A DNA stretch of 53,238 bases, the filler included, from Sphacelaria rigidula (Eukaryota), in NCBI GenBank assembly GCA_964200075.2. It is 4 parts of 4 records of this genome, joined end to end, with 100 filler letters (N's around TTAATTAATTAA, not from the genome) between each part and the next. Parts side by side here need not be neighbours in the genome. Positions count along the whole stretch, not along the records: positions 13,337 to 26,570 come from CAXNAA020003041.1; 3 more parts are not named here. One strand, 5' to 3'. A program made the position numbers and the translations under genes. This document shows positions 13,237 to 53,238 of this stretch, piece by piece (positions within the stretch are counted from its first letter, which is position 1; the number at the start of each line of letters is the position of its first letter). Below the pieces are notes generated by a model. The model searched no databases and was not told the DNA's origin. It saw only the letters and a list, made by a program, of their open reading frames with translations.

Positions 13237-13336
13237 NNNNNNNNNNNNNNNNNNNNNNNNNNNNNNNNNNNNNNNNNNNNTTAATTAATTAANNNNNNNN
13301 NNNNNNNNNNNNNNNNNNNNNNNNNNNNNNNNNNNN
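13237..13336. other. Artificial contig linker (N44-TTAATTAATTAA-N44)
   Basis: Six-frame stop linker inside an N run; the same linker is at 26571-26670 and 39905-40004. Confidence 0.97.
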
Positions 13337-14621: not shown

Positions 14622-14664
14622 GTACATAGTATATATATATAGAATATTTCGAACTCACGAGCGT

Positions 14665-14890
14665 GAAGCATACTTTGTAACGAGGCGTCCACGAGATTCA
14701 GGCTGATTTAGCCTGCAAGTTCCTCCGCACCCGCCCCGTGAGATGATCGTTCGGGCCAATGCTAATGCTAGGGGTCCATTGCCTGCATTCGTGCTAGAAT
14801 ATGTCCAGGGGTACACCTGCGTTCGCGACCGTTTGAACGGACGCGAGATCGCGGTGGTCCTGCAATGTTTCCGAAGCAGATGATTACTTC
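14665..14890. repeat. Diverged direct repeat, second copy ~17828-18045
   Basis: GCATACTTTGTA..GAGGCGTCCACGA...TGCAAGTTCCTCC...GGTCCTGCAATGTTTC present in both. Confidence 0.75.
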
Positions 14891-15906
14891 GTTCAAGCAA
14901 TCTATCCTGGAGTACAGACAGTACAAAACAACATCAAGAACAGAGAGTTCACGGCGCTGATTGTCGGTGGGTGGGTGCACCGACAGCTTCTCGTACACAA
15001 GGAGGAACGTGAAACGAAGTCTAGTGTAATACGGCGCTGAATGCTGACGTTGTGTTGTCTCAGTCTGGAGTTGAAAGCTTCCGACGCAGATGATTGCCGG
15101 TGCAAGTGATGCGTAGAAATAGTACAGTACCGACAAAACCGCAGGCAGCGAGAGGAGGTCATGGATTGAATCGGCATCAATTTCACATCAAAACTGTATG
15201 CATGACCGAGATGGACTACCCCCCCGGTGTGATGGTCAAGTACAGACATGAACAACAGTAGTATAAATTCAGTCAAGACGACTACAAGTATAGAGACTAC
15301 TGTTGTGATCTTCAAATGGGACGAGCGCATCCCACCATATACAACTCGGCATGTGGCCCCGTCTTCTCTGACTTTGGACGTTGGAGGCTTTACCACCTCG
15401 GTATATTACGGGGTATATGCCTCTCGGACAGTCGTCCTGTACCGCGAGGTTTTCCTCGGAGGCCGTCCATGTAAAACAAAGGTTCTACTTGCCTGCCGAG
15501 GCGAAGTCGCTTTTTTTACAGTACAGTACAAAACAAAGTTGAACCGTCGTGTGTACCCAAAGTAGAAAACGGGACCCAGACTCTGGTTTTGCCCTAAATC
15601 GTAGACGGAACAAGCTAAAAATGCGACCGAAGTCTCACGATTTGTCCACTGAGCCAGCACATAGTCGCGATCATGCACTAAGCTTGTCTGCGAGAACTTT
15701 TATTCATCTTTGTATCCTGCACGAGGACGGTTGCTGCCCGGGCACCCAATTCTCCGGTATTTCTCATATTCACTTTTACCTATCGTTCATACCCGTCCAC
15801 GTGGTTTTTACTGGAATGAGTGTATAATGCCCGCACCCGCCCGCACCCGAGCTTTTCATACTGTACATATATTGGAATTGTAATAATATATCTAAAGTTT
15901 AGCATT

Positions 15907-17506
15907 TATCACACCCTGGACAATACAATATGTAATATATATATATATATATATATATTGCCCGCTCGATAAGTCGACGCGTCGGGTGGTCAAAATATAT
16001 TGGGCGAGCAAGATGATGGCACGAGAGACAGGTCAATATATATTGTGCCATCAATATGTCAACGCTCGCGACATGCAATATATATCGACCGAACAATATA
16101 TCACGACACGCGCCACCTCAGTATATATTGGCCGAGTAATATGCTCATGCGGTAACGCACCAATTTAAATTTGTCGAGTTATTTGTTGGCTGCCGCACGA
16201 GGTCAATATATATATATATATATATTGACAATTCAATATACTCGACACCCGAAGCGGCAATATATATTGGGCGGACAATACACGAGGGAACGGATGGTCA
16301 CGATACATATTGGTGTAGCTATACATTTTGATTTTCAACATGTAGGTTTGACGTTGTATTGGAATTGGTATGGTGCGCAGTTTTATGTTCGTGGGCGCCA
16401 TTGAAAGACGTATCACCACATGCCAAAGACGCTCAATATATTACTCCGCGAGCGTGTTCAATATATATTGGCTGCAAAATAGCTATGCGATGAGCGTGCG
16501 CAATATATGTTGAAAAACAATACTTTTGCATGGTCTGCGCTCAATATATAATATGGTGACAATATGTTTCGCATTGCTTCGACTCAATATCTATTGACAC
16601 TCCAATACACACACGGCCGGCATGCACAATATATATTTAACGTTTTGTTCCCGAAGCAAATGCATGTCCAATACATATTGGCATACATTTCTTCACGATT
16701 ATGACACGAGGAATATATATATTGAGAAGACAATATTTGCGCTGTTTCCAATACAAAGTATTGGTATTATATTGGAACATATTGTATTGTCCAGGGTATA
16801 AGCAACACAGCACCGGTGACTACAGGGGTACCAAAAGGCGCAATTCGACCCGTGTTTTCTGTCGTCGTGATGTTTAGCCAAGATGTATTACATGCTGTAA
16901 AGGGGATGGGCGGCCCCGCACCGATGGCCAGATAGGTATCGGTATCAGGAGGCATATACTGTATACCGGGTCGCCTCTTCTGTCACCATATTTTCTGACA
17001 AATATTTATGTATACAATATATCAAACGCATGCGACAACACTCCGTAGCAATGCGCGCGAACTTCTGAGTCCCTTTGAAGCTTTTTCCAACCTGCACGGG
17101 CTCCGGCATCCATCGCGTCTGGATATTTCTCAAAGCGTACACCATAGTTGTAATATCGAATATATAGTGACCGGCCGATACATTGGCACCCACGCGGACC
17201 CAATATATATATTGACCGGTCAATATGTTTCTGCCAATGCGACCCTAATATGTATTGGTCGTGCAATATACCGTCGCCCACACTGCTTCAATATACTCCG
17301 GAGTATATATTGATTGGACAATATGTGTACAACCCCACGGTACCAATATGTATGCAGCCCGACGACATCAATATATACTGGGCGCGAAATACGTGTCCAG
17401 TCCAAGGGTACCAATAAATATTACGCCGGTAATGTATCGCAAAATTTCAATATGATCAACCAATATATATATATTGAAAACATATTATATTGTCCAAGGT
17501 GTGATA
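15907..17506. repeat. TIR-bounded periodic array of palindromic CAATATATATTG cores with unique spacers
   Basis: Left end TATCACACCCTGGACAATACAATATGT is the inverse of 16777-16801 and of 17480-17506. About 20 cores, mostly at 42/43-bp spacing. Confidence 0.85.
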
Positions 17507-18214
17507 TATTTATATATATATATAGTATTTGGGTCTCAAGAGCGCTATAGACCCTCCTGGACTCAGAACAAGGTCTAAGGACTGCTCCAAGGGCTTCCTT
17601 CCTCACTAGGGCTTGAAGGCTTCAAGACAGATGTTGTTCACAAGTGTACAGTCCTCGTTAACCGGAAGTAAACACATGCGCAAAGCATGTGATTTTCAAA
17701 CCCACATAGTCTGCCGATCAGACCCGCAAGTCCGTCAACCAATAGAAAACGCCCACAGCAGATTGTTCCACTTGTATATTATCATGAACCTGCACATACG
17801 TGTACTGGAGGTGGACTACTTGCGCGCAGCATACTTTGTAGGGAGGCGTCCACGACATTTATGCTGATCCTTGTGTGCAAGTTCCTCCCCGCTCGGCTGG
17901 GGGGATGACTGTTCGGGCGAATGCCACTGCTAGGTTTTCAGTCCTCGTTTTTCGTTCTACATTTAGTGTGAGCGGAACGTTCATACGCTCGCGTTCGCGA
18001 CCCTTCGAACAAGCGTGGTCGCGGTGGTTGGTCCTGCAATGTTTCGGCGGGCGTTCATGACCGCCCGGGAGTCCAGAAGGAACGCGCAGTCGTCGCGATG
18101 TCGTTGAACAAAGGCTCGCTCAACCGCACCGGCGTGCGGTCGGCATGGGAACCGGTTCTGCGCGCGTTCACGTGTGCACATCGCAGTCTCAAACTCGAGG
18201 ATTCCGGTATATCC

Positions 18215-20880: not shown

Positions 20881-20977
20881 TCTTTGACCGCGAGCCTGGG
20901 TCATCTGTGGAATCAGCATCAGCTTTACGTGAAAAATCACTGCATGGCCAGATGACCTACCCTCGCGGTCTAGAGGA
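20881..20977. mobile_element. piggyBac-like MITE, degenerate copy
   Basis: TTTGACCGCGAG...CTACCCTCGCGGTCTAGAGG inverted ends, matching the 51494 family. Confidence 0.6.
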
Positions 20978-22119
20978 TAAACACCATGCTCAGCTGATGA
21001 GCAGCGATGGCGTTTTTTTTTAAGTATCACCTATGCCACTACGCAACGCGCGCAACTATCACGGGTTCGCGCGCGTCTCACAAACATCATCGTTTCTCCT
21101 CGAATTCTGAACAAATTTATTCAAGGTCACGCGCAGCTCAGGTGATGAGCAACTACGGCTCGAGCTGTGTGTTTTTGTTTCTCCGGGGGCAATGGCTTCC
21201 CGAGGTTCACCTCTGATGGTTTTGGGTTGTTTATCAAGTGTCTTTGCATGTGTCCCTGTGGACGGGACACCTATGTTGCTCTTCGGACTACAAACGAGGC
21301 AAAAAATATTCGTGTTTGGAATCGGCATCATTTTTCAAAATGAAATCGTCACACACAACATGCTCAGCTACTGAGCAGCTACGGCTTCTTCTCCAAATGG
21401 TGGCCTTTGCCATTACGCAACGCACACAGCTATCGCCGGTGCTCATGTATCTTGGGTGTCGATCCACTGATCGCGGTGGCGAAGCGCCGAAACTCTTGTA
21501 TCCATCGAGGCAGAATGTATTGCTTATTGTGTGTGTTTGACACTGCGTGCCAACCGCAGCAGTGACGCCTCGAGCGTTACTACCTGCTCACTGCACAACG
21601 GCAGGGTGCAGAGTGACACAGCACACCGCAGCACGTTACACCCTTGGCCTTAATTCCCTGCTGTCTTCTGCGGTTCGCCACAACATGAACGGTCGTGCTG
21701 CGGGCCATGTACACGTGGGATACCACCCCTCGCTACGTCACACTTTATAGAGCTGTCCGTGTCGCAGCTAAGCGTGCGTTTACCCTAGGTGGCGCACGCA
21801 GGAATGAAAGGATCCCTCAGCTGCCTTAGGGGCTGCCTGCATCTTGGGCGAAGCTGTATGGTAACACAGTCGCTATGGCGCGAAAGCCGCCTGGGACATT
21901 TCACACCGATGAGATTTCTACGCACTACCTGCGTGCAGTACCGACTACTACGAGTATTGCGCAAATTGCAGCTGACAAAAGAGTACACACTGTGCACAGT
22001 ACACGTTTTGATATTGTATACTGATCTTGGAATCTTGAGGTCGGGGTGTGGCACGTTTCCACATGTAATGTTCCGCGGTGAGATCGTGACAAAATCTGCA
22101 ACGTGTGGGCGAAGGAACA

Positions 22120-23189: not shown

Positions 23190-24260
23190 GTAACCCGACC
23201 TAAATACAAACCATGTAGCTGTCAAGATGCATTTCATCAGCCGCAGACATCACTTGAAACTGGATAAGTAGCGAAGGTGCAGTCAGCGCGAATCTTCCTG
23301 TGTTACCTGATGCGACCACGCGGCGGTGTCGCACTAACGTCCCCACCCAGTGAGGAGGCCCTGCCGGAGGCGAGAAAAACACGCCGTTTGACTTTACGTA
23401 TATTCCAACATCGTGTTGAATCTGTCGGTAGCCAACGGCGCTTCGAGTACGCTCGCAAAAACCGTAGAAATTGTGTAGGGGAAACTCGCAACTGATATCA
23501 AAGTTCTTCATGTCATATAGGAAAACCAGCTGGCTGAAGAAGACGTAGCATAAAGTTCCGGGCGTGCCCAGCCCAACAATTACCTGGAAACGTGCCAGAA
23601 ATAAGATCGAGAGCGCGGCATGACTGGTAACTTTTGTCGGTCGGCTGATTAGCCAGAGGGACCAAACGTCCATCTCCAGCAATGACTCTGTCGTCTCTCG
23701 GTGGTATGCGTTATTTCAGTCTCGTATTCATGAACAACCACTGGACACTCAACACCCTACAAACGCAACTAGAGGCGCAACAGAACGCATTTTCTGCTCG
23801 AGAGTCAGGTCCGTTCAACTGTTTGTGTTCAATATCAAATTCACCCGAGTTGAGCTTACCACGATCCGCTACTAGTACAACGCAGTGCACTCCTACCTGC
23901 TGACGAAATACTTTAACCCCAACCCAACAATTTGGGCACTGTTACCTTTATCTGCCGTGACGTTCCCTGCTTTGCGCCCTGTGATCAGATGTATAACACA
24001 ACTAAGCGTATTGGGCGTACGGTATATATAGCGATTAGGACATCCGTTTTGCATACTAGAGATGCATTGGAGAGTGGCGCATGAGCTAGAATTTTTTGAA
24101 TTTATGCTGGACAGTTATCCAGTTATACCAGTTCGCAAGTTTGAGATGGTGAGAATTATCAATTCCGAGCAGGAAGATGTGCGATGCCGTGATCGACCCT
24201 GCGCTCAAGAATACCTTCCCTCGTTTTGACTCGATGGTTTCGTTTGGCTTGAATACATAG

Positions 24261-25342
24261 ATGTCGTGACCCCAGCGGATGCAGCGCGCTTCACGTTGCT
24301 GTGCGCAAGGGACATTTCGAGGTAGCATTGACGCTGCTCGAGGCAGGGGCAGATCCCAACGGTCTACAGGGGGGACGAGATTCTGGTGATGAGTATGAAT
24401 CCGATCCTTATCCCCTACACGAGGCGGCAATGTCAGGCAATAGTGACCTGACACAGGCCTTGCTGGACGCTGGAGCTGAGACGGATCCCATCGCGAACGT
24501 CGAAGCAGTCGAAACGCTTTACGACATCGAGGCGGAGGGTTGCGGAACTCCGCTGTGCTACGCGGCTGAGTTGGGAAATATCGAGGTAGTACGTATCCTG
24601 GTGGAGGCTGGTGCCGATGTGAGCACCAGCGTCAACTTATTGGATAGAACGCCTTTACACAGAGCGGCCTGCAATGGTCACGGAAGTATTGTTGAGATTC
24701 TCGTTGACGCTGGAGCTGCTGTTGATGCCCAAGATAAGGGGGAGTTCACCCCTTTGCATGACGCAAGAAGTCTAGCGGTCGTTGAGGCACTCCTCGCTGC
24801 AGGAGCAGACCCAAACGTTGTCTGTGAAGGTTTAGACCTTGATATCCGATGCACCCCAATCGGCATGTACTGTCTTACTAGAAGAATGGACGAGGTTGTT
24901 GCCATGGTTGATGCCCTACTTTGCCACGGGGTAGATACCAGTATTCCCGTTTACGTGAGAGGAGGCCCAGTAGGGTCGCTGGTCAGCTGCGCGGTACAAG
25001 GTGGCAAGCCTGATCTTGTTTCGCGTTTGCTCGACGCTGGACTCGACCCCAATGATGCTGACCTGGAGCCCAACGAAGATGTTTACGACGGGATGCTGCC
25101 AATCCACATTGCGGCAATTTGCGGCGACGAGAAAGTTGTTCGTGTGCTCCTGCAGCGAGGCGCGGACAAGGAAGCCCGCACCGAGAAAATTGGGTCGACT
25201 CCTCTGCATCTAGCGTGTCGGTGGGCCAACTTGGAGTGCGTGCAGGAGTTTTTGCGTTGGAACGTCAGCCTAACCCAGCGGGACTCTAGGACCGGAGATT
25301 CTGGCAGTCTTGCTGAAGATGTAGTGGGCCGGGAATACTTTG
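24261..25342 (+). CDS. Ankyrin-repeat protein, exon 2
   Basis: CATAG acceptor is in phase with exon 1. Many ankyrin repeats (SALHVAV, YPLHEAA, TPLCYAA, TPLHRAA, TPLHDA, LPIHIAA, TPLHLAC). Probable G|GTGGGT donor. Confidence 0.92.
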
Positions 25343-25632
25343 GTGGGTGCGCATGGTTGGTCCTGTGCGGTTGGTGCGGAGCCGTGTATTCGAGTAATAG
25401 CGTATGCTTTCCCTACACAGTGTCAGTAGTGGGAGGACAATCCACCATTGGTTGCTGATCACACAATTAGTGCGAAGATGAGCTACGCTTATGTTCGAGT
25501 AGTGTCACTAGCGACGGAGTAAAACATGATGTGACGTCGAAGTATCCAGTGTCCTGTTGATTGAGTGGCTTCACTCCCGTTTGCCCGTTTTGTCCTCATC
25601 CGCCCCATTCCTGTTCCTCTTTGCACGAGTAG

Positions 25633-26570: not shown

Positions 26571-26670
26571 NNNNNNNNNNNNNNNNNNNNNNNNNNNNNN
26601 NNNNNNNNNNNNNNTTAATTAATTAANNNNNNNNNNNNNNNNNNNNNNNNNNNNNNNNNNNNNNNNNNNN
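26571..26670. other. Artificial contig linker
   Basis: N-TTAATTAATTAA-N, 100 bp. Confidence 0.97.
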
Positions 26671-26992: not shown

Positions 26993-27224
26993 TACGCATG
27001 TCCAAAAAAACGCAAGCTTGAATATTACTACGCTTCAGATTTATATCACCTCGGAATCCCCAAAATCGTAACTTCGCGCAGTACCTGGTGTTGCTCGCTC
27101 ATCATTTCTTGTCCGTCATCGCTGCATGTATCATGCCCCACGATTACTTCGTGTGCCGTTTGCCAACGGTCGCGCGGTGTGGCAATCACCCCGTAGAGGT
27201 CTTGACTCTCCAAACCGTAGAAAG

Positions 27225-27425
27225 TAGGAAGAGGTGAGAGTAAGCGCGGGCTTCCGCATCTCCAGGCCGTGGAAACAGTGGGACATAAGCGTGGGCTCTT
27301 GCGTCTCCAGGCCGTTTTTTTTTTGAAAATAAGCCCGGGCTCTCGCGTCTCCGAGCCGTAGGAAGAGGTGAAAATAAGCGTGGGCTCTTGCGTTTCTGGG
27401 CCGTAGACGGAGGTAAAAAGTAGCG
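27225..27425. repeat. ~45-bp tandem repeat, 4-5 units
   Basis: TAAGC(G/C)(T/C)GGGCT...TCTCC(A/G)GGCCGT-like units at ~27241, 27286, 27330 and 27375. Confidence 0.8.
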
Positions 27426-28118: not shown

Positions 28119-29508
28119 GTGATGGAGGTCAAAGGCTGCGACTCGTCGGGTGACGAGATACTCGTGGCGGCGGTGCTGGCCGCTGTGATCAACCTGTACA
28201 CCACGGTGATCGCGGCCGGCCAAGAAGTACTGGACTACATGAAGGCTGAAGACGGCGGGTGCCCGTCCCGTGATGATTTGAACGGAAACATCTTCGATGC
28301 GGGCCCTAAAGAGGCAGCAACCCGTCCCGTAAGGCCGGGTTATGACGACACATGATTGGGAAAAGGACTTGCGGACATGGATGCACTGTTTCAGCCGTAG
28401 TCGACGGCAGCCCGGACGGCCCAGAACTTGTTTCGCATTCCCTACCCTGCCTTCGTCGAGCTCATGAAAGTAGTCGAGGGCAGAGCGCGAAAGGGGCTAT
28501 GGTTCACGTCGCTCAAGGAGGACGCGCAAGCCGGCGATGTTTACATCTCTCGCTCAAGGTACGGCATGGCTTGTTGATGTAGAGTACACTGGCCACATAA
28601 ATCTCGCTTTTGTGTCTTCCTGCATTTTTATCGCACTCCGGTGTGAAAACTTCGATTGGCGAGACAAATCCGATGCGGGCGCGGAAATCGAATCGAATCA
28701 TTCCGTTCTTGCCTTAGATCGCACCCCGCTGCCATGATCCTGATACGTGCGATAAATCCGGTGGGTCCGATCACTCGCATGATAACGGCGTTCCCACAAG
28801 CGGCGAGTGTGCGGCTGTGACTATAGCGCGACGATTGCCACAAGTAAGGAACTGTGTTGGGAACGCCAGCGATTAAATGCTCACTATCCATTTCGTCGCA
28901 TGACGCGTGCAAATGTGAACATCGCAGCATTCTGGGTATGTCGACGTTGCTCGTCAGCATGTGAGAGGTACTCGGGGCGCTTCGTGTGCTGGTGAGCGGC
29001 AAGTGCTCCGACGTCGTCGAGTAACGTTTCGGCTCCGAGCGGTTGGGTCTCGCACCTATTTTTGCACGCCTTCTGGTAAACGTTTCTCTTCGAGCTGCAC
29101 GTAACATGGATATCTCTGCCCGAGGGTGACGACCTCAAACGAGCGATCGGGCAACATGACCAACTGGGGTTCAAAGGTGCGATAGGCTCGATGGATGGGA
29201 CCCTCCTCCACTTCGGTCGGGCGACAGCGTCACGTGCCCAGCTCTCTGCTAAAAGGGAGGGGTTTCCAACGCGAGCATACGTGGCAAGGGTGGATCGCGA
29301 TGGCTGTGTTGTGGCATGTACGAGAGGTTTCCTAGGCTCGCAGAGCGACAAGATGATCATCCGTCTGGGCGCTGCCGTGACTATCGTTCGCAAGGACCAG
29401 ACGTGCGCCAATGCTGAGTATAAGCTCCTCAGCGAAGACGGCGCACTACCGGGCAAAGAGACGGCGTACAAGGGAGCATACCTCATCGTCGACGGAGGGT
29501 ACCACTGG
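28119..29508 (+). pseudogene. PIF/Harbinger DDE transposase, N-terminal and catalytic part, decayed
   Basis: FRIPYPAFVELM at 28431; LGFKGAIGSMDGT...KREGFPT...GSQSDK...YLIVDGGYHW match Harbinger/HARBI1-type motifs. In-frame TAA at 29077 and frameshifts upstream. Confidence 0.8.
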
Positions 29509-31375
29509 TGAGGGGTCGGCCTCGCATGCATTGATCGATTGGGTGATTGAATCGTTGTCGCAAACAAGCCGATGATACGCGACGGATCTGGTCGTGGTAA
29601 TATGATGGGCGTACCCAAGGTAAATGAGACGGAAACATTCTCCGAACAAAAGTGAAGAAACCAGAACGGTAGAACAGACATCATAGACTAAAAAAAAGCC
29701 AAGAATAAAAATAAGGGGAATCGCCGGCCTCTCTAACTTGACTCGAGATGGGAAAGGTCTTGCGCAACAGCACACGCATTCCCACCTAATCGGAGAAGAA
29801 AGAAAAGACGTGCGGATAGATTGCGGCTCATCTATTTTGGCGGTACTATTTCGGGTATGAGCTCTCCCCATGAAACTTACGCAAGTCAGGCACCGGAGGG
29901 AAAGAACTCACATGGAGGGAGAGAGGTGGTGAGAGAAGGAGAGAACAGAAGAGAAAACTGCGGAAGTTATGAAGCCCAAGGACACCTTACAGTAGAGCAG
30001 ATAACACAAATGCAATCCAGGGAACACCGCCGCAAGACCACCGACCAAGGACATAATCAACAACCGATGTGATGAGACAGGGGCACATCGGTTTCCGTAT
30101 AGCCCAGCTTCCCCCGTTAACCTCTAGCCGGTACAAGGCAGAACAGTATGTCGGCAATTTCCTTTCTGTGGCGGCTACTGTGTTGGCGGTAGCAGCTCCC
30201 CGATTGGCGGTCCCCGGCGCAGCAGCCTCTCGTGTATGGCGGAAGTACGATTCGTGTGCGTCCTCACGACGCCAAGCATCCTCAACTCTTTCGCATTGGG
30301 ATTTCATCATCTCCAGTGGTACCCGAAGTGCATCGTTTTTTCACGGCACGGTGCAGTTTGGTGCGGCGGAGCTTCCCAAAATCGTACGAGCTGGGCCAGC
30401 CTAAAAACGGATTTAGGCTCTCCAAGTAATATCTCATCGACACAGACGAGTTGGGCCGTGATCCGCACATCGTATTCATCCTCTAATCAAGGGTCCATCT
30501 GCTCGAAAATCTGGGCCAATATTTTCTCGTTGATTAAACCGCATGTCTGGTAACTCCTTTGCCGTACGGAGATAGCGTCCACACTCAAATCTATATGAAA
30601 CCCCGAACGATACATGCAGCGGATGATGACGTATTTTGGTGTGGACCTTCCCTGGAGCACGGCGAGACGATAGATACCCTCACCTCCACCTAATGGCGCA
30701 CATTAGGTTCCATACTCAAATCTATATTTTATGAACAGAGGCACTAGATGCCCTGAATCTGGATATCGCGTCTTGGTTTTTGAGAGTTGTAATTTCGTAT
30801 GGAGAACCACTAGTGCATGGTGAAATTAAAAACAAACAGCGTTCTACCTTTTCACGTTTTTTTTTCTTCATTTTTTTGTGTTTTTAGTGCAGTTTAGAGG
30901 AGAAACGAACATTGCTCTTGGGCCTTATTTGATTTTTTCAGCTCAATTTTTAGAACTGTGATTCGAAACTTAGCATGGACAACCATAGATGTATGCTGGG
31001 GAAAAACATAGGCGCTTCTTTTTTACTTTTTTCGGAGAGGTTCGAGCGTTCTTGTATAAAAATGTCGTTACCACACTAGAACGCCCTTAACCAGCGAAAA
31101 AAATCGAAACCAACCTCATCCATTTTTCTTCATTCATCATGACCTAGCGAGGTCCCGCACAAAGTTTCGATACACAAACACCAAACGTGGGGCGGTGAAC
31201 GACCTGCAAAATATTGTTCCGAATTTCCACCGGCCTGGGTTCTAAAAGGCGACTTCGCAACTTTTTACTTGGAGTTGGACCCGGAAATTTGGTATGGACA
31301 ATCAACAGGGCATGGATGAAGAAAATCATGCCGGGGTCCAAATATATATATATATATTATACTTTGCGTGAGTTA

Positions 31376-36495: not shown

Positions 36496-38003
36496 TCTTT
36501 CTTCGTGGTATCCGATTTCCACCGTGGAAAGCGTGATGACGTGAGTGAACAAAGTAGTTGGCTGAGCTCGTTTGACGTGAGTTGACGCAGTGCGGGAGTG
36601 CTGACCCAATCCACGATACCAAAATGCAAGGAGTGTACCGGCAAGAGATGAGTTGATTCCTTGAGACCACGAGCTCGTCCCGAGTGAGGGGAGGGGTTCA
36701 AAGTGCGACAAATGAAAACAATGAAGATCCACCTCTGCATCGGAATTTTCACGTGTTGGTTCATTGTTTACGTTCGTATGTGCCACGTTTTTGAATCGTC
36801 ACCTTGTATTGTGGTACTCAGGTTTTCATATATGTCTTCTTATCGTACTCTCGTATCTCCTACGTTTTTCTCATTGCCTACTTTTTTTTATCTTCAATTT
36901 TCGCTTTGTTTAGAGGGGGGGTTGGGGGGGGGGGGGCGTGGAATTCCAGCGCCGATGGGGATACTATTTTCTGTTCGCTGAATGTGATGGCGAAGACTTG
37001 GAAAAATTACACACGTCGGACGAATCATTTCTTGTCGAAACGTGTGCACTCGTTGATATATATTTTTGAAAACACAACGAGCATGGCTCGAATGCTCGCC
37101 CTGTTGATTTTTTCATCACAAGCAATAACTGCGAGTGCTCGCTCTAAATGATTAATTTTCCACAACCAGTAATGACTCGAGTGTTCGCCCTATTGATTTT
37201 TCCACGACGAGCAATGATTCGAGTGCTCGAGGACCTCCAGAAACGGCCAACGAGCAGCCCCACGAGCGCGAGTGCCACCACGAATCATACGCGAGCTCGT
37301 CCGACGGATGAAAGAGTTCGGTCGCAGTTCCGTATGCGGAAAACTGCGCAGTCTCGTCCTTGGGCCATTGCTCATCTCGAGCCCAACACCAAAACCTGAA
37401 AGTATACAGTACGATAGAGGTGGCGGCACAGTGGTCTCGTCAGTCAGGCCGGGCCGTGCCTGCCTTTTGTTTGGTTCTCAATGCTAAGTCATTTTCCGTA
37501 CCTACGCGACGACTCAGGGGATGTGATCAATTTAACATGGCCATTCAATTGAAGGGCGGTGCGTACACAAATGCCTGCAGTACAGATCACGTATGGCATG
37601 CCGAGAGCTGAGATTGCCGCAGTAGTGTACCGAGGTCTTCGGATACTGTAGTGACCGCAATGCTTGGGTGTCACCGAGGTACCTACCGCAATTGTCCGGC
37701 TCTGTACCGTACCGCACCGCACTTTCGGAGAACTGTATGTCGTGTGTCGAGCGAAAGCGAGAAAATACAAGGGCAAGGGCACCCGGTCCCGCACCGTACC
37801 GCACTTGACCGGTACTCCAAGCTGTTTCCTACGGTGATACCGCGAAGATCAAGTACCATACCGTACGATCTTTTCCCGGAATCCATAACCCAGGACAACC
37901 CTGAAACGTTTTTGCCACCCCCATGCTTTTCCACCCTGACCCTCAGCGCGTTCCCCCCACCTCTTGTGTGTGTTGAAAAATCACTAAACATGGGGAACAA
38001 TAG

Positions 38004-38342
38004 GCGAGGGTACCTTCAATTCCTCGTCGACTCTAAGATCGTGTACGAGGCATTGGAAGAAACTTGTCTGGCCGACCCCCGCCTCGCTGCATTCCGAGAT
38101 ACCGGTTTGGAACGGTCAGCCGCGTTGGCGAAGGACATCGCCTGGCTGATGAAGACCTACCCGGATTCTTGCGCAGACGGAGACGGGCAGGCGCCATCCC
38201 CTACCGCGATCGCCACAGAGTATGCCTCGTTTTTGAGGAGCACCATACGTTCTAGTCTTCCTGCATTTATGTGCCACTTCTATAATCACTACTTTGCGCA
38301 TACGGCGGGTGGACGCAAGATCGGGGCGAAGGTATCTCAAAG
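38004..38342 (+). CDS. Heme oxygenase (plant/algal HY1-type), internal exon
   Basis: GYLQFLVDSKIVYEALE, TGLERSAALAKDIAW and FMCHFYNHYFAHTAGGRKIG motifs; TAG acceptor and AG|GTGAGG donor. Other exons not identified. Confidence 0.9.
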
Positions 38343-39864
38343 GTGAGGGACGATGACAATGTGCCTCCGCGCGGTGCTTTCTTGCGGGGAGGGCGCTTAC
38401 CCGACGACAGCGTCACGTCGAACGACGTTAAAGTGGGGTTATTTCTGGTCGTTTGCACACAACCTGATACAGCGCATAACGGACAACCTCCCATCCGAAA
38501 ACTCGAGAAGGTGGCTTTTAGTGTGTCGTGGACTCTGTACCGTTTGTGGTCCGTTCAACCTCTCATTCTCGAGAGGAGAGAAAATCTTGACCCTCGGGTA
38601 TCTACGATATGCCTGATGCTCAACAGGTACTTTTGTAAGGTATCGCTCAACACGGTTTTGTCCCGACTCTCCAAGTGCCTTGTTGGATGAAGGATCGGGA
38701 ATGGGAGGGCGAGGGTGCTCTGCACCTGGACTTGCGTTTGTAATGTAGTCACGCAAGGAAAGGGGCGAGGGTTTGTATCCCCGATCTGTGCCAATGCAGG
38801 GAGCCGTTATCGACGTTTGATTTTCCCTGGTGTTGTGGGCTTTGGTGTGGCGGTTTGGTCGTGGTGAATGGTCCGTGCGCCCTGGTTTCGTGCGCAGCAC
38901 GTGTTTGAAGATCGCGCACACCTGTTCAACTGCAAGTGACTTCATTTTCTTCTCGGTGAGGCAGTGTTCGTTTTTTTTTCCCTCACACTTTGAATCCCCC
39001 CCCCTTCGTCGGGATGAGTCCGTGGTCTCAAGGGATCAATCCACCTCTCCCCCATTACCGTGCCTTTTTGTTGTGAACAGCTTGAAAATCATTTTTGGGC
39101 GTATGGGTGCGGTATCTTTCAGTTCAGGCACCACAGGCTTCTTTGATTAAATGCATTCGTTGTAAGCAATCCGGGGATGGTCATTTTGTCTTTGACACCT
39201 GGGCACGCAAGCAATAACATGTGATATGTTGAAGTTTGGCTTCTTGCATTGCCACTTCGTGTAGTATGTGCGGCACACGACAGACCCCTCCCCCTCTACA
39301 GGAAAAGGGCTAGGTACGAAATGAGTTGAAGGAATCTGGGTTCAAAGTGGGTGGCAGCGTCCGTCTTGAGATCCGCCGTTTATCTTACAAGCGTCTTGAC
39401 CGACAGTTTTACAGAGAAATACACCGAGCTTCTGAGCAAAATGAAAACTGAAAGCGCTACTAAACTACTCTGTAGGAGTGTAGTTGTCACGTCCGCGTCC
39501 TCCTCTCGTAAAATGAAAGGTCCAGCAGAGGATGTCGTAGATAGCACTTCGGATCTAACACAATTAATTACTGGTATTCTACCGAAGGGTAGCGACGTTT
39601 CTCTTGAACATCCCCAAAACCCATGCAACTTCCCTGCGAAACGGCGAAGAAGCGGTGGGAACCAGCGCAGGAACGACCTATGAAACAGTGATCGCAAGTC
39701 CGTAGCTGGAGTTCGGGAAGTAAGCAGCCTTGAAACCGAACAATGGTGTCAGGCCCAACACCAGCCACATCTATGACCTTCCAATCAAATTCTCCGAACG
39801 TTTGGCATCCCAAGTGCCTGAATTCAGACTACCCGAACCCCCCCCCCCACCCCCCCCCCCCCCG

Positions 39865-39904
<40 letters not shown>

Positions 39905-40004
39905 NNNNNNNNNNNNNNNNNNNNNNNNNNNNNNNNNNNNNNNNNNNNTTAATTAATTAANNNNNNNNNNNNNNNNNNNNNNNNNNNNNNNNNNNNNNNN
40001 NNNN
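39905..40004. other. Artificial contig linker, preceded by a poly-C contig end (~39838-39904)
   Basis: N-TTAATTAATTAA-N, 100 bp. Confidence 0.97.
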
Positions 40005-43774: not shown

Positions 43775-44321
43775 CTGTAAACACCCGGAGGAGACCGAAA
43801 ACACGCAGCGGGTTCTTGAAATGAATCAAGGCTTTGCGGGTTGGAGGGAGAAGAGGCAAACACAAACGGGACATGGTGCGCGTAGGCAGCAGCCCGCTAA
43901 TGCTCGTGCGTATAGACAGGAGTCAGTCACTGTTCTGCTGTACCGTAGTGGAGACCCGTTTCGTCCTCGGCACCCAGGGTGTAGTGTCTCATGATACGAT
44001 ACACAGTCATGCCTGGACAATAATCGGGTGAGAGCAAGATATCTTGGCTAGCGGATCGACATGAGGGGCAGATACAAGAAGCCCTCAACTTACTCAAGTG
44101 TACGCTGTTCCTGCTTTACAAACCTATCGGGATGTGCTTCACGATCAGAGTCAACATGTATAATCCTCATGTTCACAGCTCAGGCAGTGGAGAACATGCG
44201 GCACCCCACTCAGGGCAATCCGAACGGAGAACTATTTTCGAGTTTTCGGCCCCCGAAACGCACACCCTGTTCAGCACGTCCTTGATGCACCTCCTGTGCC
44301 ATGTCCTTCCACAAACCGTAC

Positions 44322-44801
44322 CTTCATATACTTGCTGGCATAGGAGGCCACGGGTACCTCCTTGGCCGGCAGCACCAAGTTCTCCGGGATCATGTCAAGC
44401 ATGGTTGAAAAGAACCGGTCGTGTTTCTCAATGGTGGCCACCAGCTCATCCACAACCACAGGGGCGTCGGAAACCACACCCTTTTGCCCGGCATCAAAAC
44501 TCTCACTCCTCGGACGCTTCTTGCCCGAATCGACACCACCTCCACCAACAGTAACAGTAGTAGAAGAATTATGTCGACCTGGGGACATTTGAATCGCGGC
44601 AGGTGGTCGCCCCTTGCCGGCGCCGACAACTGTGTCAGTCTTCGGCTTGTGCCGGCTGGCTATGTCCTGGGCGGCGAGCTTTGCAGCAGCAGAGCTGGTA
44701 TTATCCTTGCTGTTGCTGCCATTCTCGTGGTTTGCGTCATCTTTTACGCTCTTCAAAAGCTTTGCACGCTTAGACCGCTCTCCTCTCGAGACACGAGGCA
44801 T
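44322..44801 (-). CDS. RRP14/SURF6-like ribosome biogenesis protein, exon 1
   Basis: ATG at 44801, 480 nt, AAG|GTACGG donor. IEKHDRFFSTMLDMIP resembles the Rrp14 N-terminal H..F..L..LIP motif and is followed by a K-rich exon. Confidence 0.72.
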
Positions 44802-46403
44802 ATCAGGGAGATTTCAACAATGTAGTCCTGAGCAGTATGGCATAAAGACGCAGCTGCTCGGATGGGGAGAACCATGACAGCGTAACAGCAGGCTGGACCT
44901 CAAAGAAACGCGTGAATAAAAGCCATGCTCCATTTCATTACTGTAGCACTTTCTTGAACTATTGTAAGTGGTACAACATAAGGATAATGAAAAAGCGTTC
45001 TGCCTCCTCGAGATCCATTATTTTTCCTATCCATGTTTTTTTTCGGTGCGGCATTTTCTTCAGCGTGGTTAACGACTCCCATATCTAACCACCGTACTGT
45101 AGTGAGATACCCCCCACCAGACGAGTGGTGCATTGCATGCGTGGGTATGCAAGACCAAGAGTACTCTTGACTTCACAACGTCCGACTGCGGGTTTGAGTA
45201 TAAAGCAAATATCACTTTGAGAACAAGCATCGATCGCGGAATTATCTGAAGACTGGAGGTGCTATTGCCATTTTCAAGCGGTATAAGTTTTCCCTTCAGT
45301 CAGAGTTTTTCAAAGAGAACGTGTCAGTGAGAGCAGGGCGCGGTTGACGCCGTGGAGTGAAGGGAAACAGAGATCGGGGATTGATAAAAGGGAGAATTTG
45401 GTTTCTTCTTCGAGAAGAGAGGGAATCAATCTGGAGGTCAGTAATTTGCTTGAGTTTTCGTCGTACTGGCTGTGTCTGTTGATCGTGTCCCGAACAGACC
45501 AAGAAAGCTCACAGAGGTGCTCCGAGTTATTGCTGATGCGTGGTTGACTCAACCAACTTGAGAGCGATGTGTATTGCTGCGGGACCAACGACGATGTCTA
45601 TACAAGCAGATGACATAGTTCATTGGTCACGTTATAGCGACGTTTCGGTGTTGGGGCGCCACGCCTGCATTGACAAGAGTCTTCCGTTGTGGTTGTTTCG
45701 GTGCGTTGTTTTGTATCACCCCCACAATCTCCACGAGTCTCCGAAATGGTTGCCGAACTCACTCCCGCTCTTCCAAGAACTCCGCCCGAACGAGATACCT
45801 GATGTATGTACACCACTGACGACACAGTAGATAGACCCTTTTCATCCCCGAGTTTTTAAACACAGAACAGCTATCACCTCATTCACCCTGAGTCAAAACA
45901 TGTGCCGTCGCCGGTTGTCGTTCTTCATGTTGAGCTTATGCTGCCTAGAAAGTCGTTCAGCACTCTGTCCTCATCTTTTTCATAGCCGGTCAAGTTTTTA
46001 CCGACGCGGTTGTTTGTGCTGGCGTTGGGGGTACCGTATCTGGGCCGAGCGAGGTGTCCAACCCCCCGATTAAGTTGTTATTGTCGTTTTTATTGTTGAG
46101 GCTGCTTGCATGCGACGGCAGGGCGATGTTACCGCAGTAAATACCAATATGCCCGCACATATTTCGCTCCCCGCCACTCGCATCACTTTCGTAGTCACCA
46201 ACGGACTTTGTAGTCATGACCAAAACACGCACGCGCTCTCGAAGTGTTCGTTTCCGTCATACCAGCACATCTCCCATGTTCACCCGCATTAACGTCAGTG
46301 CTTCTTTGCTCCTCGCTTAATCTCACAGCAGAACAACGCACTTGAGAGTGGGTGGCGCCCCTGCCCCTCTCTCGTTTGAGGGAGAACGCCTTTGTCCGGC
46401 GTC

Positions 46404-50539: not shown

Positions 50540-50745
50540 CAACCCTCAGACCGCGGTCGGGGTAGTCCATCCGCATCATGCATACTTGTTTCAAGTGATA
50601 ATTGATGCCGATTCAGCAGGTGACCTATTCTCGCGGTCAAAAAGTTAACCCTTAGACTGCCAACGTAGTCCATCTGGACTATGCACCCTTTTTTCAAATG
50701 AAATTGATGCCGATTAAAGAGATGATCTACTCTCCCTGTCCAAGG
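50540..50745. mobile_element. Two tandem piggyBac-like MITEs joined at TTAA (~50645)
   Basis: CCCTCAGACCGCG...CGCGGTCAAAAG TTAA CCCTTAGAC...; both units contain TGATGCCGATT. Confidence 0.7.
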
Positions 50746-51493
50746 GATGAGATTTACGAAACCGCCAGGGGGACAGTTCACCTTGTGCGCTCATGAGGAC
50801 ACGTTTCGGCAACTGGTCTGTGATCCAAGCTATTTTGTTGCTGCCAGGCGTTTGAAGAGGCAAACCCCGGGCAATCGGTACCGTCGAACGACGAATGCGC
50901 GAGTAAGACATTTGCATTTGTTGGTGGTGGTGGTGGTGGTGTTTTTTTTTTTCTTTTTTGATATCGCTGCCCCCTTTCTTTCCTTTCCTTTCTGAGGCCG
51001 TTACTTCTGTCTTTTTCTGTTCCTTTCTTCTTTTTTCTATTGTTATGATTCTGTTCTGTTTTTGCTGCTCCTGACTACGGGCTGGATTGTTGCAATCAGC
51101 TAATGGGAGATAATCAATCAATCAATCAATGAAAGGAAACGATCGCTTTCAATGCCAGCGGATAACTCCCCGCATTCATGCAATGTGCTTTATGACAAGA
51201 ACGTGTTGAGATTTGTTTTTTTACACATCGCACCTCAACATGTGACAGTGACGCTGCAGCGCCGAATACCGCCACGACCACCCCGGAGAGCGATATCGTG
51301 TCATCATATCATCCCATATGCATATGTGGTGAAGGGCAGTCATTGTACGTGCGGTGAGGGGCCGACCGGGGGCCAATCAAGCAGCGACCCAGATTCGGAC
51401 AGTGCTCACTTTCGGATCGGGTAAACGGAAACGCATGACCCAGTGAAAAATAAGTCGTGTACGTTTCCAACAAGCGTTAGACCGCGAGAGTAA

Positions 51494-51595
51494 CCCTTAG
51501 ACCGCGGGGTGGGCAGCCCATCTGGATCACGCATACTTTTTTCAAGTGAATACTGATGCCGATTCAGCAAGTGACCTACCCTCGCGGTCTAAGGG
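51494..51595. mobile_element. piggyBac-like MITE
   Basis: (G)TAA|CCCTTAGACCGCGGGGT...ACCCTCGCGGTCTAAGGG|TTAA. Confidence 0.85.
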
Positions 51596-51609
51596 TTAAA
51601 ACGTCATAA

Positions 51610-52145: not shown

Positions 52146-52329
52146 AACTATATATACATATATATATGTATATTCGTTGAAAAGTTGTCATGGAAAATAG
52201 ACGAATGGTGGCCAGAGACGGCGAATCTGTCAGGGGCATAAGATATGTGGAAGGGTATGCGTAAAGTGTATGGAAGAAATTGTCTATGGGTTCCAAAAGG
52301 GTTTTATAAGCCTTATCCGGCGGTGCGGG

Positions 52330-52422
52330 TACGAGGTAGTGCATCTGGATCATGCAAACTTTTTTCAAGTGAGCATTGATGCCAATTCAGCTCGTGGCCT
52401 ACCCTCTCGGTCAAAGGGTTAA
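52330..52422. mobile_element. piggyBac-like MITE, 5'-degenerate
   Basis: CATCTGGATCATGCA...TTTTCAAGTGA...CTACCCTCTCGGTCAAAGGG|TTAA. Confidence 0.7.
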
Positions 52423-53238
52423 GGCAAGTAAATGTGAGTAACAGCGCCCCCGGCCCCCGGCGGTCCTTCACCGAAGGCGGCGTGGGACGGCCGGCTAATG
52501 CGCACCTCGCNNNNNNNNNNAAACTAAATTTCAATCCCCCCCCCCCCCTCCGGGAACAATGGACAGACGACTAACGCAAACAACAAATGAGTATGCCCCC
52601 CCCCCCCCCCCCCACCTCCCTTCCGTTCTCGGGACGAGTCCGACGTCTCCAAGAGGTTAACCCACACCTCCGCCAGTAGCAACCTCACACTTCAGTGTGA
52701 CCCGACCATGGGATTGGCACCCCCGCAGCCGCACGACCACCATCGAATTCCGGTGCTAACTAACTCTCTTTGAGTATTTCCTCCGGCGACGGAGCGAGAA
52801 AGCGAACTCCACAGTCGGGATTCGAACCCCCCAAATGTACCCAGCAATGGTGTAGGTTCTCCCCAAGGGCGCGGCGAATCACAGCACAGTACACAACACA
52901 AAACAGTAAAAGTATGCTGTGGTAGTAGTGTCCCGTCGGCATACGATGCCCAGCTGTCGCCAGCTACAGGGAAGCGGTGCAGTAGTGTACTGTAGGGCTG
53001 TGCTATACAGGCCTGCAGTACGACGATACGCGACGCGCCACAGTAGTCAGCGTCAGAAGTATGCAGGATCCGTAATTTTTTCAAAGATTGTCGGAATTTG
53101 TTTTGCTTGCCATCGCTCATCACGGTTACTGTTGGATGCAAAAAAATGGGCATCCGGAGATATCTGAATCCTCTTGACAACTATTGAAAGAAAAAGCATC
53201 TGCGATCAATATTCAGTGACTTACGGGCTTGACCGATC

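Follow-up and report, generated by a model that had tools for sequence, protein, structure and literature searches.

A CRISPR-looking array in the genome of Sphacelaria rigidula is most likely the interior of a common non-autonomous transposon remnant

DNA transposons of the EnSpm/CACTA group have CA..TG or CAC..GTG ends, together with target-site duplications (TSDs) 2–5 bp long, as described in the available excerpts of PMC12730594 and PMC6004678. The EnSpm families of the brown alga Ectocarpus have CAC termini, terminal inverted repeats (TIRs) of 20–25 bp and 2-bp TSDs, and two of them carry a further remark: EnSpm-N1 is listed with “complex palindromes in subtermini” and EnSpm-2 with a “tandemly repeated RE” (PMC12477816, supplement MOESM3). 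Subterminal motifs of plant CACTA elements form palindromic arrays that are bound by TNPA, according to the accessible part of PMC2613891. MITEs that target TA runs are also on record (PMC8449440, in excerpt).

We analysed a stretch of 53,238 nucleotides, filler included, from Sphacelaria rigidula (GenBank assembly GCA_964200075.2; hereafter the window), in which a first-pass annotation had marked a CRISPR-like array at 15907–16801. Our results indicate that this array is most likely the interior of a common 1.6-kb transposon remnant, the copies of which share the same spacers. As judged from listed features and not from sequences, the element has in common with EnSpm-1, -2, -N1, -N2 and -N3_Ec32 the CAC termini, a TIR length of 20–25 bp and a brown-algal host. 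Its palindromes can be likened to the palindromic subtermini of EnSpm-N1, and its internal right-end copy to the tandem right end of EnSpm-2. In turn, the Ectocarpus families are 6.9–15.2 kb long vs. 1.6 kb for the element, and their listed termini read CACCC, CACTG, CACAG and CACCG vs. CACAC in the element.

Like the plant CACTA elements Spm/En, Tgm1 and Tgmt, the element is asymmetric and carries reiterated direct and inverted motifs that form palindromes near the ends (PMC2613891, in excerpt). In the same excerpt Tgmt is described with 24 repeats in 732 bp at its right end, TNPA-type binding is proposed, and the plant elements are given a 13-bp CACTA TIR and a 3-bp TSD, whereas we found a 24-bp TIR and a candidate 2-bp TSD. 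The element differs further from its plant counterparts in the 6-mer motif, the near-fixed 42/43-bp period, the single polarity and the filling of most of its length. A regular period may also be a feature of Tgm1.

Two other Ectocarpus entries come close. The terminal pentamers of hAT-2_Ec32 (CACAC-GTGTG; 21-bp TIR) are identical to those of the element, and DNA-N1_Ec32 has a CAC terminus, a possible 2-bp TSD and is non-autonomous, as the element is; yet the table mentions no array in the case of these two, and the copy of the element in the window has no 8-bp duplication (PMC12477816). The CAC…GTG termini and the reiterated direct and inverted motifs, which here reach through the interior, are those of the EnSpm/CACTA group. 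The element appears to work like a CACTA-type non-autonomous element, and on these features its membership is plausible. Most likely it represents a new family of non-autonomous TIR transposons with a phased lattice of binding sites, that is, an ordinary kind of thing that is unusually regular. In open-access text we came across no account of a transposon with an array phased at 42/43 bp.

Extent of the element and architecture of its units

The element occupies 15910–17503 (1,594 bp, no strand assigned); it is a high-copy, non-coding sequence, the longest stop-free frame among the 29 listed having 104 codons. It is bounded by a left TIR, CACACCCTGGACAATACAATATGT (15910–15933, plus strand), in which CAATA occurs twice (at 15921 and 15926), and a right TIR (17480–17503, minus strand) that terminates in GGTGTG. 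The two 24-bp repeats are identical at 22 positions and give the element its CACAC…GTGTG ends. It is possible that the flanking dinucleotides AT (15908–15909, plus strand, and 17504–17505) are a candidate 2-bp TSD, and a TA duplication with TCAC ends would fit too. At this one copy, with its AT-rich, low-complexity flanks, the TSD tests gave 2/2 matches for a 2-bp duplication, 4/8 for 8 bp and 3/9 for 9 bp. No paralogous empty site was present in the window, and none of the 15 contig joints shown (of 371) skips the element.

The first-pass annotation had set the array between inverted termini of about 25 bp and ended it near 16801. A perfect 21-bp inverted repeat (15913–15933/16777–16797) does exist there, but the left end is matched more completely by 17480–17503. 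The claimed right end was about 700 bp off; it is an internal copy of the terminus, and the third run of units beyond it had been missed.

Units are arranged in three runs, all of the same polarity, which occupy about two thirds of the element and not its ends alone. Run 1 (15934–16324, plus strand) comprises 9 units with periods of 42, 43, 42, 43, 42, 55, 42 and 43 bp and has two TA-expanded cores, the first core of the run (ending at 15960), absent from the list in the first-pass annotation, being one of them. An interval without units (16325–16433, no strand assigned) separates it from run 2 (16434–16736, plus strand), which is made of a leading half unit and 7 units at periods of 42, 41, 43, 42, 42 and 44 bp. 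Next comes the internal copy of the right end (16737–16798, minus strand), which contains the right arm of the perfect 21-bp repeat (16777–16797) and lacks the outer CAC. It is followed by a unique middle segment (16799–17157, no strand assigned), which belongs to the repeat family by its high depth and bridging contigs and has no second copy in the window. Run 3 (17158–17476, plus strand) has 7 cores and, at 17344, one unit without the core and the 6-bp gap; a loose contig end from one public data set (X3) shows a complete core at this place in other copies.

The two right ends, the internal one on the side of 16798 and the outer one on the side of 17503, align over about 35 bp, which is beyond chance. 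By eye, no 2-bp match flanks the internal terminus end at 16798. The best reading of this layout is a left end plus a duplicated right-end region. Two adjacent separate elements were considered and rejected, as contigs bridge the internal terminus and 17158 is without a proper left TIR; a long mirror-image TIR or foldback structure was rejected because the runs have one polarity. Homology of the unit-free interval (16325–16433) to the middle segment was likewise dismissed, its score being equal to that of shuffles. Run 3 also holds two perfect 18-bp palindromes (17209–17226 and 17291–17308), the second of which is a 12-bp insertion into a core.

Each unit consists of a 12-bp palindromic core, 6 bp, a CAATAY hexamer and a GC-rich linker of 18/19 bp. 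The core, CAATATATATTG, is formed by two hexamers head to head; a single motif thus occurs three times in the unit and gives it a polarity. Allowing 2 mismatches, we found 29 matches to CAATATATATTG in the window, 25 of them inside 15910–17503, vs. 1.53 expected over the whole window (largest number 5 in 100 shuffles). In 15907–16801, 10 pairs of cores lie 42/43 bp apart, and at most 1 such pair appeared in 1000 shuffles. Of the 15 cores listed in the first-pass annotation, 14 are within 2 mismatches of CAATATATATTG, the exception being 16161 with 3; the core placed at 16711 was recovered as a TA-extended core at 16713. The alternating 42/43-bp spacing claimed there is beyond chance, although strict alternation is confined to run 1: linker lengths alternate strictly between 18 and 19 bp in run 1, read 18, 18, 19, 18, 18, 18 in run 2 and are all 19 in run 3. 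In agreement with the view that this is unlike an ordinary minisatellite, TRF reported no 42/43-bp array in 15907–16801.

The third CAATAY hexamer was detected within one mismatch in 16 of the 23 units (interval shuffles: mean 0.23, maximum 4 in 20,000). As this hexamer is fixed 6 bp past the core, the 30-bp intervals are not free, and the variable parts are of 6 and 18/19 bp. The intervals had been taken as mostly GC-richer and mutually dissimilar. The 19 complete linkers are indeed 60% GC; the intervals, however, have the hexamer in common, and linker similarity exceeds that of shuffles (pair mean of 0.283 vs. 0.248 ± 0.007, reached by 0/500 shuffles). Neighbouring linkers score 0.36 and the best pair 0.74. 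Such weak residual relatedness would be as expected of an old tandem duplication. We also tried an 85-bp dimer repeat and rejected it, since the lag-2 linker score (0.31) is lower than that at lag 1 (0.36). Motif positions deviate in 57 of 426 cases in the window's copy. The pattern is that of a constrained motif and length and a much less constrained linker sequence, with linkers that are near saturation. The longest match of the spacers elsewhere in the window is 11 nt, and 18/19-mers are too short for collection-wide tests.

Related copies in public sequence data

Five of ten public data sets (from 2 studies; none recorded as RNA) contain part of the stretch, and four were aligned to 15400–17900. 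Contigs were aligned at 80% likeness, a threshold that arrays less than 80% alike, e.g., with wholly different spacers, escape. Diverged contigs aligned in all four data sets (6841, 5735, 6751, and 2567), most of them 80–95% alike. Their colinearity extends through spacers and internal terminus alike, and they differ mainly by transitions, which make up 63–67% of the variable places over the whole 2,501-bp stretch.

In one data set (X1) the summed contig depth, which is no copy number, was 3,081 immediately outside the left end and rose to 26,990 in the bin of the terminus, where some letters were skipped at the TA run, and to 156,471–208,730 in the next two bins. Thereafter it ranged from 9,443 to 197,172 up to 17499, middle segment included, and the boundary was less sharp at the right end than at the left. 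Individual listed contigs of this data set had a depth of 56–144. We infer that there are many hundreds of copies. The internal terminus is bridged by seven listed contigs, from all 4 data sets, with more than 31 letters on each side; the listed pieces link up between 15990 and 17293, interrupted once (16211–16261), and none spans the whole element. Only 0.03 of the aligned contig sequence continues into unlike sequence.

Among the 40 best-supported differences (601 further ones were recorded), 24 are inside the element. All nine majority changes at motif positions in this set restore the motif, suggesting a more regular family from which the window's copy departs by decay. Another six of the best-supported differences fall in six different linkers, and at each position one letter accounts for 95–99.6% of the depth in X1; such near-monomorphic positions indicate that the linkers are inherited.

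Changes of whole units were also observed. The 15 contig joints shown of 371 include skips of about one unit (16500 to 16542, 41 letters; 16143 to 16204, where 17 letters intervene), 43 letters added at 16714, a return by 126 letters at 16583 and one joint that links run 1 to run 3. In other copies, run 2 has one unit more or fewer. Loose ends of contigs revealed a variant linker after 16143, which is equally long and by eye agrees at 11 of 17 letters; before 16258, they showed another unit in 15–38 contigs per data set. The linker of this unit is unlike that of the window's copy, but 7 consecutive letters of it recur, by eye, in a linker of run 3. Subfamily divergence, together with slippage or unequal exchange between cores, can explain these changes without new machinery.

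Taken against CRISPR arrays and integron cassette arrays, the likeness is superficial and comes down to a palindromic repeat, a fixed period and dissimilar intervals. The element is eukaryotic, high-copy and enclosed in TIRs; its spacers are inherited and shared and contain a second fixed motif, its repeats are degenerate, and no associated enzyme was seen in the 12 frames scanned (of 72). CRISPR arrays combine near-identical repeats with unrelated spacers, whereas we found 57 deviations at 426 motif positions, a fixed hexamer and related linkers. They also acquire spacers in a polarised manner; copies at least 80% alike show no such polarity, and their units are gained and lost internally. 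The proposal of a CRISPR-like, cassette or spacer-acquiring array does not agree with related contigs from four data sets (2 studies) that are colinear through the spacers. The opposite outcome envisaged in the first-pass annotation, copies with the same colinear spacers that differ by point changes, largely describes what we see, except that some copies gain or lose whole units.

Outside the window, neither phage nor plasmid records matched the element. The TIR pattern had 0 hits in viral contigs and 0 in genome contigs; its 8 loci in metagenome contigs were set down to chance, none having a core or an array. The unit patterns likewise had 0 hits in viral and 0 in genome contigs, and the 10 viral loci of a shorter unit pattern were discarded, none having two cores 41–44 bp apart.

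Role of the lattice and competing readings

Because the element has inverted termini, no coding frame and many diverged colinear copies, it is very probably a non-autonomous TIR transposon with inherited spacers. As a fuller account, we consider it likely that this is a high-copy, non-autonomous cut-and-paste transposon of the EnSpm/CACTA-like type, the motif and spacing of which are kept for a DNA-binding protein while the linkers drift. CAATAY, found three times in each unit and also within the termini, would be the protein site, and we favour with some reserve a lattice that would serve the binding of a transposition protein. Membership of EnSpm/CMC is a closer call, towards which the termini and repeated ends make us lean slightly.

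In the proposed mechanism, a transposase or a TnpA-like subterminal binder, supplied in trans, would recognise CAATAY, and the element would be mobilised in trans by cut and paste. A distance of 42/43 bp corresponds to four helical turns of B-DNA (about 10.6 bp each). This period would put equivalent sites on one face of the DNA and might thereby promote cooperative loading and the pairing of ends. Copies that keep motif and spacing would be mobilised more often, and linkers would drift; after such drift, an old tandem duplication may now resemble repeats with unique spacers. Slippage or unequal exchange from one core to another would add or remove units. The constraint on motif and phase and the transposase-binding scaffold in a TIR element, both raised in the first-pass annotation, fit the evidence.

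Some observations count against this reading. All three runs have one polarity, while mirror-image ends would be the simple expectation; units in about two thirds of the element provide far more sites than end recognition should need; neither an autonomous partner nor a transposase of the element turned up; and the TSD comes from a single copy in AT-rich DNA. We tentatively suggest, with more doubt than conviction, that a single-polarity four-turn lattice could serve as the track of a one-faced protein filament that extends over the entire transposon. What counts against EnSpm/CMC in particular is that Ectocarpus hAT-2 carries the same CACAC-GTGTG termini, with 21-bp TIRs (PMC12477816). An element of the same kind and mechanism may belong to another superfamily, e.g., as a relative of hAT-2 or in a TA-targeting lineage, which we regard as rather unlikely. 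On the right the element is flanked by a TA run, in which erosion could have removed a longer TSD; Mutator-like MITEs that target TA have been described (PMC8449440, in excerpt), and the flanks also permit the TA duplication with TCAC ends. Membership of hAT agrees less well with the TSD tests at the one copy (4/8 and 3/9 for 8 and 9 bp vs. 2/2 for 2 bp); moreover, the TSD of hAT-2 is an assumed one in the table of PMC12477816, and it is EnSpm for which that table mentions palindromic subtermini and repeated right ends.

The single polarity and the three internal runs, not needed for end recognition alone, would also suit a lattice kept for a host protein or a chromatin effect, with an HMG, AT-hook or TBP-type binder that aids spread or escape from silencing. 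AT-rich palindromes are generic targets in the minor groove. Even so, we hold this to be unlikely, given that CAATA is itself part of the termini, which usually marks sites for transposase or TnpA (PMC2613891, in excerpt), and that brown-algal centromeres are reportedly mostly without satellite arrays (bioRxiv 10.64898/2025.12.07.692804, in excerpt). Far more improbable is a modular array in which a dedicated enzyme adds or exchanges whole 42/43-bp units with new linkers at the core, so that subfamilies differ in cassettes. Unit-sized insertions and deletions (16714, 16500, 16583) and the unit with an unlike linker before 16258 in other copies speak for it, and fully different arrays would escape the 80% threshold. 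These points are outweighed by the colinear copies with near-monomorphic linker positions, the equal length and 11 of 17 common letters of the alternative linker after 16143 (by eye), linkers more alike than chance, degenerate and TA-expanded cores, variable parts of just 18/19 bp and the lack of a recombinase or cas domain in the 12 frames scanned (of 72 listed). We give just as little credence to a structured RNA precursor from which cleavage at the cores would release small RNAs. The fixed period of the palindromic cores would be in line with it, and Ectocarpus transposable elements give 21-nt RNAs in localised patches (PMC12477816, in excerpt); ordinary siRNAs of such elements, however, would not need this design, the folding of two stretches of the element was not beyond that of shuffles (z −0.87 as DNA, z −1.55 as RNA), and the single Rfam match, a chance one, scored 21.5 bits, far below the threshold of 100.

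On the preferred reading of a transposon with binding sites, a eukaryote's convincing look-alike of CRISPR would be explained by selection that acts on a short motif and the distance between its copies while the sequence in between drifts. Should binding be confirmed, the element would show which motif a brown-algal transposition protein recognises and in what geometry, and its hundreds of variants would amount to a natural phasing experiment. The apparently abundant repeat family of this seaweed is useful for annotation; no new class of system is opened by it.

Other features of the window

Other repeats abound in the window. A lower-copy repeat (15400–15900; 10–37 contigs per listed position), the family match of which stops near 15815–15840, adjoins the element on its left. 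To the right, a separate high-copy insert of about 277 bp (17545–17821), with imperfect inverted ends and a possible 3-bp duplication, splits a repeat that has an uninterrupted homologue at 14630–14871. Long inverted-repeat pairs (826–1561/1927–2661, with 681 nt at 97%; 8479–9157/13845–14520; 3658–3857/4967–5166) are probably other TIR or foldback elements. Dispersed ends of about 100 bp that share the GATGCCGATT motif occur at 50541–50649, 51492–51600, 52315–52423, 20953–20981 and other places; some of them end in AAGGG, with TTAA after it, like the piggyBac termini listed for Ectocarpus (PMC12477816). Ordinary minisatellites at 27224–27419 (period 45) and 37073–37229 (period 42) are unrelated to the array by inspection. 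The stretches 13237–13336, 26571–26670 and 39905–40004 (44 N, a 12-bp AT linker and 44 N) are artefacts.

A fragment of a Harbinger/PIF-type DDE transposase was found at 29080–29511 by a weak DDE_Tnp_4 match and one relative at 30% identity. It was set aside as a partner of the element, Ectocarpus Harbinger termini mostly starting with GG or AG and having 3-bp TSDs (PMC12477816). Host genes are represented by an ankyrin-repeat protein (24253–25458), a heme oxygenase exon (37612–38346) and an Rrp14-like exon (44271–44813). The heme oxygenase exon shows 70–71% identity to proteins of Scytosiphon and Ectocarpus, as against 60% for Choristocarpus and 54% for Tribonema, indicative of a brown alga as the host.
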